Origin: a virus
DNA length: 17,535 bases
Virus genome (UHGV): UHGV-0122804
Direction: 5' to 3' (one strand)
Shown here one piece after another: positions 11,973-15,618 of the stretch (positions within the stretch are counted from its first letter, which is position 1; every line of letters begins with the position of its first letter). The notes under the pieces are model-generated. The model did not search any database, was not told the origin of the DNA, and was given only the letters and a program-made list of their open reading frames with translations. The position numbers and the translations under genes are program-made.

Positions 11973-14081
11973 ATGTCTAAAAAACGTTCCATCAAAGAGG
12001 TTCAGGACTTCCGTGACAGTGTAAAACGAGTAGTCGCTCTCCTTTCAGGTAAAAACATCCCTGTTGCAGAACGAGGGGACGACGCTTATGTTCGCTATAA
12101 CGATGATGGAGAGCCAATTCTCGTAAACATCCCATCAATCCCGGATAACGCAACACCGGCATTGATGAATGCTGTGCGCGGATTTCTCGATCATGAGGTT
12201 GCTCACATTTTGTTTACCGATATTCGTGTGTCCAACAAAATGAGAGAAAAAGGACGCGTACCTTCCTGGTCGCTATGGAATGCCTTAGAAGACGTGTTCA
12301 TCGAGCGAAAAATGGGTCAGGTCTTTAACGGAACAAGACGTAATCTGATGGCAACTCAGCGCCTTATAATCGAAAAAGTCTTTAAACCAAAGGCTTCAGA
12401 GGCTATTGCTTATTGTGGCAAAGATCAGCGCGCGCTTTTTCTAAACTTCTTTCTCTGTCCGGTTGTAAGAGCCTGGGATGGCCAAGCACCGTTCGTAGAT
12501 TTCATGGATGAATATTGGCCTGTCATTGAGAAACCAATTTCATTATTAAAAGAACATGGTATCGATGTGGCCGTGCGTAACATGTCTTGCACCGAGGATT
12601 GTGTAAAGGTGGCTGCGACCATAGCTAAGATCCTCAAAGACACTGAAAGTGAAAGCAAAGGTAAGGAGTCAGCTCCGGGAAAAACTTCCGATCCTTCAGA
12701 CGCTGACCAGACGGATGCCTCTGGAGAAAACAGTGAAGACAACGAAGATCATGAGACACCCTCAGTGTTAGATAATCACAAATCTATCAAATCAGAATCA
12801 CACAGTAAGCACAAACATGATAATAACGACAGTGATGATTCAGATAATTCTGAATCATCAGAAACAATATTCGATGATACAGAAAATGATAAAGAGGTAT
12901 CAGATTCTGATGCTTCTGATAACGCGGCGTCAGAATCATTAACCGCTGACCACGAAAAAAGAAAAACGACAGAAGACGGCTCTTCAGATATCCCAACTCC
13001 GTCAAAAATGAGTCTGGAAGAGGCTTTAGAGGAGTTGGATAGCATGGAAGATGAAGTCGGAGGCATGACAGAAGATGCGCTATCCGAAACGATTAAAAGC
13101 GAGTTAACAGAAAGCTCGAAAAGCGAATACAGGCCATACAATCGCTCATACGACTTCATCGGCTCGATTGATCAGGCAGAAGCCCATATCAAACGGCTTA
13201 TTAAAACATTCTCCGATATTGATTTGGGAGGATATCCAATCAGCCGCTATCGCATCGTTCCTGAAGGCAACCAGCTCTTCGACAAATATATTGAAAAGCA
13301 TCTTTCGTCAGGTGTTTCGTCGACGCTGGCAAAAGACCTGGAGCGAGCAATAGCAAGCAGAAACAGAGTTCAGTTTATACCGGGCCAGCGTCGGGGGCGC
13401 ATTCATGGTTCTAGTATCTACAGATTAGCAATGAATGATGCTCGCGTGTTTCGTAAAAAAGAAGAATCTAAAGCCGTTAACGCCTGTGTTCAACAAGTGA
13501 TTGATTTATCAGGTTCAATGAGTGGTATAACGATTAAACTGGCTCTTGCAAGTGCATATACCATCGCCGATGCCCTTGATCGAATAAATGTTCCCAACAT
13601 TATCACCGGCTTCACTACATTTGGTAGTCATATGGCGGCAGGAGAACTTAAGGCTGTCAAGTATGAGTTCTCTCGCTTTGAATCTTTAATGCTACCTATC
13701 ATCAAAAATTGGAATGAAAAGGTAAATTCTCGCGAAGTTCGCTCACGTATGGGGTGCGTAGGCTACACATTCCCACTTCTTAATAACGTGGATGGTGAAA
13801 GCATAGCCAGCCTTGCATCGTTATTTTCCGGTCGCTTGGAGGACAGGAAGATCATGCTTGTTCTGAGTGATGGCGCGCCGTGGGCTGTTGGGAGAGGTTT
13901 TGACGCTCATTTGCGTTCAGTTGCGAAGCAAATTGAAACGCAGACTGATATTGATTTGATGGCAATTGGCATCATGACTGACGCACCGGAGAGATTTTAC
14001 TCAAATCATGCCCTGGTAACGAGCGTTGATAGTCTTGGTTCATCTGTAGTTACTGAACTATCTCGTATCATTTTAAAGTGA
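11973..14081 (+). CDS. cobT: CobT-like von Willebrand factor A (VWA) domain protein with an acidic Ser/Asp-rich central region
   Basis: C-terminal MIDAS-like VIDLSGSMSG and VWA-like downstream sequence. Central low-complexity acidic stretch (DSDDSDNSESSE...), as in CobT-family proteins. SD aagga before the ATG. Confidence 0.75.
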   Translation: MSKKRSIKEVQDFRDSVKRVVALLSGKNIPVAERGDDAYVRYNDDGEPILVNIPSIPDNATPALMNAVRGFLDHEVAHILFTDIRVSNKMREKGRVPSWSLWNALEDVFIERKMGQVFNGTRRNLMATQRLIIEKVFKPKASEAIAYCGKDQRALFLNFFLCPVVRAWDGQAPFVDFMDEYWPVIEKPISLLKEHGIDVAVRNMSCTEDCVKVAATIAKILKDTESESKGKESAPGKTSDPSDADQTDASGENSEDNEDHETPSVLDNHKSIKSESHSKHKHDNNDSDDSDNSESSETIFDDTENDKEVSDSDASDNAASESLTADHEKRKTTEDGSSDIPTPSKMSLEEALEELDSMEDEVGGMTEDALSETIKSELTESSKSEYRPYNRSYDFIGSIDQAEAHIKRLIKTFSDIDLGGYPISRYRIVPEGNQLFDKYIEKHLSSGVSSTLAKDLERAIASRNRVQFIPGQRRGRIHGSSIYRLAMNDARVFRKKEESKAVNACVQQVIDLSGSMSGITIKLALASAYTIADALDRINVPNIITGFTTFGSHMAAGELKAVKYEFSRFESLMLPIIKNWNEKVNSREVRSRMGCVGYTFPLLNNVDGESIASLASLFSGRLEDRKIMLVLSDGAPWAVGRGFDAHLRSVAKQIETQTDIDLMAIGIMTDAPERFYSNHALVTSVDSLGSSVVTELSRIILK

Positions 14082-14094
14082 ACAAAACAGCCTT

Positions 14095-14142
14095 AATGAT
14101 AAGTAACCACTTACGATAGATGATGATATATTTATATAAGAA
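14095..14142 (+). promoter_or_regulatory. Motif A copy 4 (partial): ATGATAAGTA-acc-ACTTAC ... TATAAG, upstream of the cobS-like gene
   Basis: Left arm GATAAGTA (14098-14105) is exact; right arm is degenerate. TATAAG at 14135-14140. Confidence 0.35.
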
Positions 14143-14176
14143 GTTGAACGCTCATTAGAGAACAAAGGAAAAACGC

Positions 14177-15412
14177 ATGACGACTACTGCACTGCAAAAT
14201 GAAAAAAATCCTTCTGATTACCTTGTTTGCAAGTGGTGCGGCAAATCATTTCACTATTTTAAGTCCCATGTAGCCAATGGTAATTGCGAGGGCATTCCTG
14301 AGTCAGTAAAAGATGCCGATCCTGACACCGTACTGAAAATGTACACAACGCAGTTTCCAGATGAACCAACGCTATCGAAAAAGGCACTTGATGCAATTCA
14401 AGCTAAACGTGCCGAGCAAAAAAGCGAAATGGCCAAATCTTCTGGCTTGACCAGTAGCCCTGGCTACACAGGCACAGTTGAGTACAAGACAGATCTGGTC
14501 GCAGCTCACGAACTGCTAAACGTAACGGTGGAAGAACTCGGAACAAAACGTGGGACGCCGCTCATGGTTAGCGTCAACGTCAATACGCCGTATCCAGAGT
14601 TCGTTCCCGAAGTGAAGAAAGGCTACGTATATGGCGACTTCGAACTGATCAAAGATATTTTCATGATGCTTGAACTTGGCATACCTGGCTATTTGTGGGG
14701 TCATGCAGGAACAGGCAAATCGTCATTGCCTACACAGCTATGTGCTTTGCTCAATCGTCCGTTGATCCGTGCCCAACATACAGCATCAATGGAAGAGGCA
14801 CATGTTACGGGGCAAATTCTGGCGCGTGATGGCTCTACGTATTTCGAACCTGGCTTGCTTGCGCTCGCAATGAAGCATGGCTGGGTTTACCTCGCGGATG
14901 AATACGACTTTGCGTTTCCACAAATTCTTGGCGTGTATCAGCCAGTGCTGGAAGGTGAAGCGTTGGTCATCAAAGAGGCAACTCCAGAATGGCGTCGCAT
15001 TACTCCGCATGAACGGTTTGCTTTCATTGGCACTGGCAACACGAACGGATCTGGTGATGAAACCGGCTTGTACCAGGGTACAAACATCCAGAACGCCGCG
15101 AACTTTTCGCGTTTTGGCATCGTTTCGAATGTGAAATACATGAGCAAAGACGCAGAGATCAACATGCTGACAAATGCAGGCATCGTGGATGAATACGCTG
15201 AAAAGATGGTTAAGTTTGCCGGTATCGTTCGCGATGGATACGAAGAACACCTCATTAGTCAGCCAATTGGCCCTCGTGAACTTTTGTTGTCGGCCAAGAT
15301 TGGAATGATGCGAGGCGACTTTGTGACAGGTATTGAGCGTTCTTTCATTAACAAACTCCCTTCAGCTTCTGCACAAGCGGCTCGTGAAGTTGTTCAAAAA
15401 ATATTTGGTTAA
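14177..15412 (+). CDS. cobS: CobS/MoxR-like AAA+ ATPase with an N-terminal Cys/His cluster
   Basis: Walker A GHAGTGKSS, Walker B VYLADEYD. N-terminal CKWCGKSFHYFKSHVANGNC looks like a zinc-binding knuckle. Confidence 0.8.
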   Translation: MTTTALQNEKNPSDYLVCKWCGKSFHYFKSHVANGNCEGIPESVKDADPDTVLKMYTTQFPDEPTLSKKALDAIQAKRAEQKSEMAKSSGLTSSPGYTGTVEYKTDLVAAHELLNVTVEELGTKRGTPLMVSVNVNTPYPEFVPEVKKGYVYGDFELIKDIFMMLELGIPGYLWGHAGTGKSSLPTQLCALLNRPLIRAQHTASMEEAHVTGQILARDGSTYFEPGLLALAMKHGWVYLADEYDFAFPQILGVYQPVLEGEALVIKEATPEWRRITPHERFAFIGTGNTNGSGDETGLYQGTNIQNAANFSRFGIVSNVKYMSKDAEINMLTNAGIVDEYAEKMVKFAGIVRDGYEEHLISQPIGPRELLLSAKIGMMRGDFVTGIERSFINKLPSASAQAAREVVQKIFG

Positions 15413-15414
15413 TC

Positions 15415-15618
15415 GTGCGTAAAGGATGTTTCGGCTCTCTTATCGCTGCTTCTGAAACTGGTAAGGCTTGTCTGGTGTGTCCAGACAAGCCCGATTGTCA
15501 CCAATCAGCAAAAGAAGTTGCGATTTCGATGCATGGGAAGTTCGTAGGCTTCCCCAATGACAAAATCAAAAAAACCAGAAAGGTAAAAACACATGAAGGC
15601 ACTGATGGTTCGAACTGA
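15415..15618 (+). CDS. hypothetical small Cys-rich protein (67 aa), GTG start; overlaps the dnaE start by 26 nt
   Basis: CLVCPDKPDCH cluster. Doubtful as a real gene because of the overlap with dnaE and the non-ATG start. Confidence 0.3.
   Translation: MRKGCFGSLIAASETGKACLVCPDKPDCHQSAKEVAISMHGKFVGFPNDKIKKTRKVKTHEGTDGSN

Follow-up and report, generated by a model that had tools for sequence, protein, structure and literature searches.

We report on two adjacent genes in UHGV-0122804, a 17,535-nucleotide (nt) stretch of viral DNA (the window, i.e. the whole stretch that was analysed), whose products are related to the CobT and CobS subunits of cobaltochelatase. Both are on the plus strand, as are the other genes of their block that are described below; the CobT-like gene (702 amino acids, aa) spans positions 11973-14081 and the CobS-like gene (411 aa), encoding a MoxR-class AAA+ ATPase, spans 14177-15412 after a gap of 95 nt. 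A sequence-only reading of the window had proposed a CobT-like VWA protein and a CobS/MoxR-like AAA+ partner at this locus, and searches with the Pfam families CobT, CobT_C and AAA_5 bear this out. Many E. coli plasmids of approximately 110 kb match the region with 99.9% identity, Escherichia phage Cyrano with 98.5% and Salmonella phage SSU5 with 75%, and by these matches the window represents an SSU5-like phage-plasmid. The number of plasmid records matching the region is 465 (Escherichia, Enterobacter, Yersinia, Salmonella and other genera), and the VWA half alone matches 1023 plasmids. The pair belongs to a rightward block with the order 70-aa open reading frame (ORF), CobT-like gene, CobS-like gene, 67-aa ORF with four Cys residues and dnaE, followed by genes for single-stranded DNA-binding protein (SSB), exonuclease and RecA.

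The CobT-like protein matches Pfam CobT over residues 9-294 (E = 4e-27) and CobT_C, the VWA domain, over residues 492-701 (E = 2e-81), as well as the PDB CobT chains 21vt_A (1.8e-15) and 9uka_G (4e-13); it also matches phrog_1576, which is of unknown function (1.8e-299), and its NCBI name is 'cobaltochelatase CobT-related protein'. The N-domain (aa 1-225; 11973-12647) is homologous to that of CobT (Pfam CobT, 1.8e-21 on this piece alone), and its AlphaFold2 (AF2) model (predicted local distance difference test, pLDDT, 83) shows helix 1, three strands and then a helical bundle, which is the topology described for Brucella CobT_N. Next comes an acidic Ser/Asp-rich linker of 140 aa (approximately aa 226-365; 12648-13067; D+E 31%, S+T 26%, K+R 9%), which the sequence-only reading had put at roughly 130 aa and counted as atypical. 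Its presence was correctly noted, but true CobT (Brucella) has a corresponding disordered acidic linker of approximately 90 aa, and on this comparison the viral linker is ordinary for CobT. Among relatives with at least 58% identity the total protein length varies between 649 and 790 aa, and the alignment puts the extra residues in the linker. The pre-VWA region (aa 366-490; 13068-13442) includes a segment homologous to the CobT 'shaft', which in Brucella CobT is Q373-R413 (bioRxiv 10.64898/2026.07.21.739949); in the BLASTP alignment with S. meliloti CobT, LAKDLERAIASRNRVQFIPGQRRGRI pairs with LANRLQRRLMAQQNRSWEFDLEEGYL in this segment. Finally, the VWA domain (13443-14078) carries a MIDAS (metal ion-dependent adhesion site), where D511, S513 and S515 (13503-13517), N605 and D633 map onto Brucella D422, S424, S426, N518 and D546. 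The DxSGSM motif and D633 are invariant in the alignment of CobT-like proteins (A3) and the site is, as judged from its residues, intact.

The most telling difference from true CobT lies in the N-domain and was absent from the sequence-only reading. Residues 74-78 read HEVAH (12192-12206), an intact HExxH zinc-peptidase motif within a predicted helix (residues 62-81), and the segment LEDVFIE with E106 and E111 (12288-12305; predicted helix 99-117) is a candidate for the third zinc ligand. In four true CobT proteins the aligned residues are SMALR, AFALR, AAALQ and AFALR. A full-library search with the N-domain gave 1139 cluster representatives, and motifs were counted in the 127 full-length proteins among the best 150 of these (33-67% identity): HExxH is present in 126, the downstream NxxExxxxE also in 122, and DxSGSM in 124. 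(A word-index search with the N-domain alone returned 20 fragments only, and a search with the full-length protein gave only close relatives because the variable linker splits clusters.) Five of six viral lineages have HExxH, compared with none of the four true CobT proteins; the Rhizobium phage protein, the 'peptidase' of cyanophage Syn33 and the protein of Vibrio phage JSF27 have it as well as the representatives counted above. Neither E106 nor E111 varies in alignments A3, A4 and A5, true CobT included. The N-domain of Brucella CobT is reported to have an M48C-peptidase-like fold (bioRxiv 10.64898/2026.07.21.739949); fold searches with the viral N-domain gave no significant match to solved zincins, and searches of PDB sequences, with the single sequence or with profile A4, did not reach Brucella CobT_N. 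At the sequence level the viral adaptor can be said to keep an HExxH...E zincin site, unlike true CobT, and the CobT-like protein is a probable metallopeptidase. As a separate observation, profile A4 (positions 93-140, N-x-x-E-D-x-F-I-E) weakly matches the anti-CRISPR protein AcrIIA26 (PDB 9zq6_B; E = 0.03, 17 bits); the match is not significant and is probably due to chance.

The CobS-like protein matches Pfam AAA_5 over residues 173-293 (E = 2e-15) and phrog_249, annotated as 'porphyrin biosynthesis' (1e-106), and the solved protein most closely related to it in sequence is Brucella CobS (E = 1e-25; residues 142-411 against 39-315 of the chain). With the AF2 model (pLDDT 85) the top Foldseek matches are NorQ (9e-15) and CbbQ (E range 9e-15 to 1e-12), and the predicted fold is that of a MoxR-class AAA+ protein. 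Within the AAA+ module (14489-15409) Walker A (G175-S182, including K181; 14699-14722), Walker B (D241-E242; 14897-14902), sensor-1 N288, the Arg finger R312 and sensor-2 R367 are invariant in alignment A6, and these motifs align with G71-S78, D141/E142, N186, R210 and R271 of Brucella and S. meliloti CobS. Comparison with SSU5 gave 131 synonymous and 25 non-synonymous codon differences in the AAA+ core, which by this measure is under strong purifying selection, while the first 100 codons of the gene evolve fast (44 non-synonymous versus 24 synonymous differences).

The N-terminal extension of the ATPase (aa 1-104; 14177-14488) is composed of a putative zinc (Zn) knuckle, followed by two helices that carry an FPDxPxLS motif and by a spacer predicted to be disordered; in the model residues 12-80 have pLDDT values of 76-90 and residues 85-98 values below 50, and the extension has no Pfam match even at E 10. 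The sequence-only reading had singled out CKWCGKSFHYFKSHVANGNC as an extra Cys/His knuckle. This string corresponds to residues 18-37, but the conserved core is C18-X2-C21-X4-H26-X4-H31 (14228-14269) and the last Cys, C37, is retained in the enterobacterial clade only. Alignment A1 covers 22 relatives with identities as low as 44%; C18 does not vary among them, and conservation is at least 90% at C21, H26 and H31. The exact CX2CX4HX4H is present in 76 of 90 full-length relatives; the knuckle is hence present and conserved in homologues, as a hallmark of a viral clade and not as an oddity of this copy. The model predicts a beta-hairpin (16-25) and a helix (28-33) with pLDDT values of 76-89, and the spacing of the motif presumably resembles that of the retroviral CX2CX4HX4C knuckle. 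A scan of viral contigs with A1 gave relatives with at least 77% identity only and no new lineages. Four true CobS proteins are without the extension and knuckle, as are the cyanophage and Vibrio-phage CobS-like proteins, and on this evidence the knuckle marks the group of approximately 100-kb phages having DnaE.

The structures of Brucella CobSTN show CobS as a 328-aa AAA+ hexamer and CobT as an N-domain, a disordered linker of approximately 90 aa and a VWA domain; the shaft ahead of the VWA domain reaches into the ring of CobS, CobT_N is docked on the final CobS helix, and CobN sits at the MIDAS side of CobT (bioRxiv 10.64898/2026.07.21.739949). As reference for true cobaltochelatase we used four cobS-cobT loci (S. 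meliloti, Cereibacter, Pandoraea and Sphingomonas), which were found by tblastn with a Brucella CobS segment; S. meliloti CobST is biochemically validated (PMC6249242). Against the CobT equivalog TIGR01651 (cut-off 759 bits) the window protein scores 66.7 and S. meliloti CobT 1166 bits, and against the CobS equivalog TIGR01650 (cut-off 558.55 bits) the scores are 86.6 and 651 bits, respectively; both viral proteins thus fall about 10-fold below the NCBI cut-offs. CobS_N (PF12556) was not found in the CobS-like protein even at E 10, compared with 2e-17 for S. meliloti CobS. True CobS has a C-terminal helix, alpha10, with a hydrophobic patch (A322/A323/I325/V326) that docks CobT_N; the CobS-like protein is without this helix and ends with ...QKIFG, where the four true CobS proteins run on for approximately 16 residues (..ELPESA...), and most CobS-like relatives end one to three residues past RIF. 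The positions that contact the shaft also differ, being E206, A208, I214, A216 and F247 in the CobS-like protein and S102, I104, D110, I112 and R147 in Brucella CobS (A6); along with the missing helix and CobS_N, we take these differences as signs of a co-evolved pair. Given the knuckle extension and the missing docking helix, the viral subunits probably contact each other otherwise than true CobS and CobT do. Gene order is a further difference, since the four bacterial loci have cobS before cobT, as stated in the sequence-only reading, and every viral locus examined has the CobT-like gene first; the order is atypical relative to bacterial cobS-cobT but is the rule in the viral lineages.

Two observations concern the search for true cobS. 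In three alphaproteobacteria the true cobS-cobT genes (L014, 3755-7827; L015, 3743-8428; L100, 1917-6691) adjoin genes for BolA-family and J-domain proteins and are not part of a cob operon. Moreover, more than 200 plasmids, by organism mainly Acinetobacter (119), Citrobacter (54) and Pseudomonas (18), have matches with less than 60% identity to the true Brucella CobS segment and at least 80% of the segment covered, and these may form another CobS-like subgroup, separate from the SSU5 type.

CobT/CobS-like genes were found in 494 phage records and in over 1000 plasmids, among them the SSU5/pHCM2/pMT1-type elements from E. coli, Salmonella, Klebsiella and Yersinia, in addition to the cluster representatives mentioned above. 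A recurrent order, CobT-like gene, CobS-like gene, in some cases a sigma-70-like gene, Cys-rich ORF, DnaE, gp32-like SSB, 5'-3' exonuclease and RecA, is present in environmental phage contigs, an Ectothiorhodospira prophage, a Photobacterium element, Pseudomonas phage ZY21 and Rhizobium phage RHph_N1_10, and ATPase identity among these lineages is 35-48%. The gene order of Cyrano and SSU5 runs DnaB, primase, ligase, tRNA(s), in Cyrano an integrase and a repressor, small ORF, CobT-like gene, CobS-like gene, small ORF and DnaE, with SSB, exonuclease and RecA further downstream; the head/tail/lysis module is more than 15 kb from the pair in both. The T4-like cyanophage Syn33 has glutaredoxin, 'peptidase' (CobT-like), two small ORFs, cobS, gp45, gp44 and gp62, and the Vibrio podovirus JSF27 has CobT and CobS with a helicase and PolA a few genes downstream. 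The CobT-then-CobS order beside replication genes is consequently seen in three phage lineages with DnaE-type, T4 PolB-type and PolA-type polymerases. Judging from these loci, the order and the replication-side position are general for viral pairs whatever the polymerase type, and the presence of three polymerase types argues against a DnaE-specific role. The sequence-only reading had suggested a link to replication; the neighbourhood is conserved in all three lineages, but the link rests on gene neighbourhood only.

The 67-aa ORF (15415-15618; phrog_6337, of unknown function, 3e-45) starts with GTG two bases past the CobS-like stop and overlaps the dnaE ATG (15593) by 26 nt, so that the Cys-rich 67-aa ORF overlapping the dnaE start, as described in the sequence-only reading, was confirmed; its Cys residues are C5, C19, C22 and C28. 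Translational coupling to the genes on either side is probable. Its N-terminal motif, RxGCFGS...C..C.....C, recurs unchanged in SSU5 and in the phrog_3616 proteins (170-189 aa) located just 5' of dnaE in distant relatives, and nucleotide identity to SSU5 is 90% for this ORF versus 74% for the CobS-like gene; to judge from these comparisons it is very likely a real gene. It resembles a short form of the phrog_3616 protein (L003, 11853-12365; L006, 11870-12439), whose gene in the distant relatives comes after a sigma-70 region-2-like gene and immediately before dnaE; in SSU5-like phages the sigma-like gene and the C-terminal half of the four-Cys protein have been lost. The possibility that the ORF is a remnant of the sigma-70-like gene was rejected, as it has no similarity to that gene and instead matches the N-terminus of the next one, phrog_3616. 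Downstream, the dnaE-type polymerase gene runs off the window at 17535 (Pfam PHP 3e-13, DNA_pol3_alpha 4e-74, finger 7e-12). Further downstream in relatives, the RecA-like recombinase of the Ectothiorhodospira prophage (L006, 18375-20435) is approximately twice the normal length with an intein-splicing domain detected, and that of Cyrano is similarly long (779 aa; 26302-28641).

Upstream of the pair, the 70-aa ORF (11662-11874; phrog_2627, 5e-40) is the first gene of the rightward block, and a small ORF of similar size also precedes the CobT-like gene in Cyrano and in two other relatives (L006 and L007). Divergent from the block is a helix-turn-helix (HTH) repressor-like gene (11025-11411, minus strand; HTH_19, phrog_8 'transcriptional regulator'), whose Cyrano counterpart, CYRAN_45, is annotated as 'putative repressor' and is among the genes expressed in the lysogen. 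Ciprofloxacin induces Cyrano, and the transcriptome table of the Cyrano LF82 lysogen lists CYRAN_45 and not the pair (CYRAN_47 and CYRAN_48). Scans for promoters and terminators gave no excess over shuffled expectation and no terminator-like site was detected on the plus strand between the genes. In its layout the block looks like a lytic-cycle replication block. A role as genes expressed in the lysogen for the benefit of the host was downgraded, the pair being absent from the list of genes expressed there.

Several other features of the flanks were observed. The gap separating the 70-aa ORF from the start of the CobT-like gene contains a perfect stem of 9 bp (CTGCGCGAA / TTCGCGCAG) that encloses a loop of 15 nt (11887-11919); the predicted RNA fold is -17.6 kcal/mol (z -3.7 versus shuffles), with no T-run 3' of the stem. 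Such a structure might act in attenuation, in processing or in protein binding ahead of the pair. A tyrosine integrase and the HTH repressor-like gene (9927-11411) lie just 5' of the block, as in the environmental relatives L003 and L006, while SSU5 (10247-10483) goes from tRNA-Asn directly to the CobT-like gene without this pair of genes; an integrase is notable in an element kept as a plasmid. Genes for a PhoH-like ATPase (8088-8876) and a glutaredoxin (9468-9716) are also located upstream. Marine cyanomyoviruses also conserve phoH, an nrdC-type glutaredoxin and cobS, and in Syn33 the glutaredoxin gene is directly 5' of the CobT-like 'peptidase'; this co-occurrence may be a coincidence or reflect a shared functional set. 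Finally, a 529-aa ORF (6273-7862, minus strand) has 37% GC versus approximately 45% around it, no Pfam match and a match to phrog_13820 (unknown function), and it is probably an accessory insertion, as the Cyrano annotation has no minus-strand gene of comparable size near the tRNA cluster.

Our data suggest, with a probability that we put at approximately 0.6, that the pair is a viral, self-contained relative of the CobS-CobT motor-adaptor unit and not a cobalt chelatase. Most likely it is an ATP-driven protein-remodelling machine rather than a vitamin-making enzyme. By homology to CobST, NorQD and CbbQO, the CobS-like protein would form an ATP-hydrolysing MoxR-class hexamer, the pre-VWA shaft of the CobT-like protein would be threaded into the ring, and the VWA/MIDAS face would hold a client, possibly a host protein to be removed or a phage replication or assembly factor to be matured; what goes beyond a MoxR motor plus a MIDAS adaptor in this mechanism is what we infer. 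Because the zincin site is retained, the machine probably cleaves its client besides remodelling it. The sequence-only reading had favoured a chaperone or remodelling system, which would fit the homology (MoxR fold, MIDAS-containing VWA partner) and has already been proposed for jumbo-phage homologues (PMC7824862).

There are observations that weigh against this interpretation. The Pseudomonas phage ZY21 lineage lacks both His residues of HExxH, and the knuckle is degenerate (C..D....H....Y) in six of the 90 full-length relatives, which suggests that neither metal site is indispensable everywhere. E106 and E111 need not be zinc ligands because they are also conserved in true CobT, which is without the His residues. 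Much of the synteny within the group of approximately 100-kb phages may reflect shared ancestry of whole genomes and not a functional link. The lysogen expression table, which does not list the pair, provides indirect evidence, and the literature holds no biochemical or genetic data for any viral member.

That the genes instead constitute a genuine cobaltochelatase pair, i.e. auxiliary metabolic genes that hijack host CobN to raise cobalamin, e.g. for a B12-dependent ribonucleotide reductase, is both the standard annotation and a published proposal (PMC8651126, PMC2984593, PMC11705849), and the domain architecture, MIDAS site and ATPase motifs are the same as in CobST. We regard it as very improbable. 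Both proteins are far below the equivalog cut-offs, CobS_N and the CobT-docking helix are missing, and a conserved HExxH would be superfluous for a chelatase. No CobN or any other cob gene was found among the annotated genes across the whole Cyrano record (host chromosomes were outside the search), and Cyrano encodes class Ia NrdAB and ThyX, neither of which is B12-dependent. E. coli, which is without an aerobic or de novo pathway, requires approximately 30 heterologous genes for B12 production, with cobN, cobS and cobT among them, and B12 synthesis in Salmonella follows the anaerobic route (PMC6249242). The suggestion in the sequence-only reading that the pair is probably not making cobalamin is accordingly well supported. 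A virion-assembly chaperone and maturation protease, as proposed for the MoxR-vWA-metallopeptidase pairs of jumbo phages and reported for the MoxR/VWA pair of the Acidianus two-tailed virus, would match in architecture (MoxR AAA+ plus a vWA protein with an N-terminal metallopeptidase; PMC7824862) and would account for the conserved HExxH; we consider it unlikely, since the Cyrano/SSU5 pair lies between ligase and dnaE in the replication block, at the distance from the head/tail/lysis module given above, and the cyanophage and Vibrio phage pairs are likewise on the replication side.

The position before dnaE could also mean that the pair, together with the four-Cys protein, is a factor dedicated to maturing the DnaE-type polymerase (PHP domain) or the replisome, or to loading it with metal. 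The order CobT-like gene, CobS-like gene, small Cys ORF and dnaE persists at 35-45% identity from enterobacteria through Pseudomonas and Rhizobium to marine phages, the small ORF and dnaE overlap, and several MoxR/VWA systems are metal-insertion chaperones (bioRxiv 10.64898/2026.07.21.739949). However, related pairs occur in phages without DnaE, i.e. the T4-like cyanophage, where gp45/gp44/gp62 imply a T4-type polymerase, and the PolA-type Vibrio podovirus, and a DnaE-specific role was downgraded for this reason; the synteny in DnaE phages may be just inherited, and the knuckle and the Cys ORF, being restricted to one clade, would be at most a clade-specific add-on. We therefore find this explanation, too, rather unlikely. 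Likewise improbable, in our view, is a protease for host takeover or counter-defence that would seize a host protein and destroy it as lytic growth begins: the block resembles an early lytic operon divergent from a repressor, the catalytic motif is conserved, MIDAS domains are peptide-capture modules (PMC7159879) and the pair is spread over many unrelated phage lineages, but PADLOC gave nothing meaningful and no match to known defence or anti-defence families was found, the non-significant AcrIIA26 match being the sole hint. High conservation over very different hosts would moreover point to a conserved phage-side or universal target and not to one in an arms race.

Returning to the remodelling machine, a more far-reaching version is that viral pairs, including cyanomyovirus core 'cobS', are two-component ATP-dependent metalloproteases, that chelatase CobT is their catalytically dead descendant, and that in the DnaE clade the knuckle and the four-Cys protein tie the machine to nucleic acid or the replisome. 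The MoxR ring would then drive the adaptor, with capture of the client by MIDAS and its cleavage by the HExxH domain at the onset of phage DNA replication. We put this forward tentatively, as possible but doubtful in its entirety.

The pair belongs to a large viral family that has already been noticed computationally and never characterised; in the literature viral cobS is a B12 gene by annotation only, with its function stated to be unknown (PMC8651126, PMC11705849, PMC2984593). New here, as read from sequence comparisons, are the retained HExxH, the predicted Zn-knuckle extension, the missing docking helix and CobS_N, the changed pore contacts, the reversed order and the replication-side context that recurs in three lineages. 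This matters since cobS and cobT are among the commonest 'auxiliary metabolic genes' reported in phage genomes and viromes and are routinely taken as evidence of virus-boosted vitamin B12 synthesis; should the viral branch be a machine for remodelling or proteolysis, these ecological inferences are wrong. In that case a conserved and abundant phage function is still to be discovered, for which Cyrano/SSU5 offer a tractable E. coli/Salmonella system. The HExxH contrast provides a simple sequence rule that separates viral-type from true CobT and suggests how the chelatase adaptor evolved.

Compared with CobST, the viral pair shares the AAA+ module, the CobT N-domain, the acidic linker, a shaft-like segment and the VWA/MIDAS domain with all ATPase and MIDAS residues kept, and identity on the CobT side is 26% over 420 aa; it differs in that the viral ATPase has a 100-aa extension with the putative Zn knuckle instead of CobS_N and that true CobT is without HExxH. 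The closest solved folds for the ATPase are in NorQ-NorD and CbbQ-CbbO (Foldseek 9e-15, template modelling score 0.85-0.88 on the target), where the same logic applies, with a hexameric motor and a single MIDAS adaptor acting on a client; these systems are cellular and not viral, the NorD and CbbO adaptors have no peptidase-like domain, and the clients are NorB and Rubisco. Among viruses, the MoxR AAA+/vWA-metallopeptidase pairs of jumbo phages (Iyer et al. 2021, PMC7824862) have the same two-gene architecture in tailed viruses, and their vWA partner carries an N-terminal metallopeptidase-like domain as here; this likeness is one of description. The viral 'cobST' cluster (Liu et al. 2021, PMC8651126), a computational report, also has this architecture in tailed viruses. 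For viral pairs virion assembly (PMC7824862) or B12 boosting (PMC8651126) has been proposed on computational grounds. The MoxR (p618) and VWA (p892) proteins of the Acidianus two-tailed virus are a viral pair thought to act as chaperone (PMC7824862, PMC7159879); they are without the peptidase domain and tied to extracellular tail development, and their likeness to the window pair is again one of description. In Syn33, where cobS and the 'peptidase' (T4-GC150 and T4-GC146) are cyanomyovirus core genes, a CobT-like protein with HEVGH and DWSGS precedes cobS, and the pair is placed among replication genes like that of the window, with gp46 upstream and gp45/gp44/gp62 downstream; it differs in identity (18-29%), in having no ATPase knuckle, in the two small ORFs between the genes and in the type of polymerase. 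While the cyanophage and Vibrio-phage versions are without them, the extension with the putative Zn knuckle, the four-Cys ORF and the fixed place before dnaE are specific to the group of approximately 100-kb DnaE phages.

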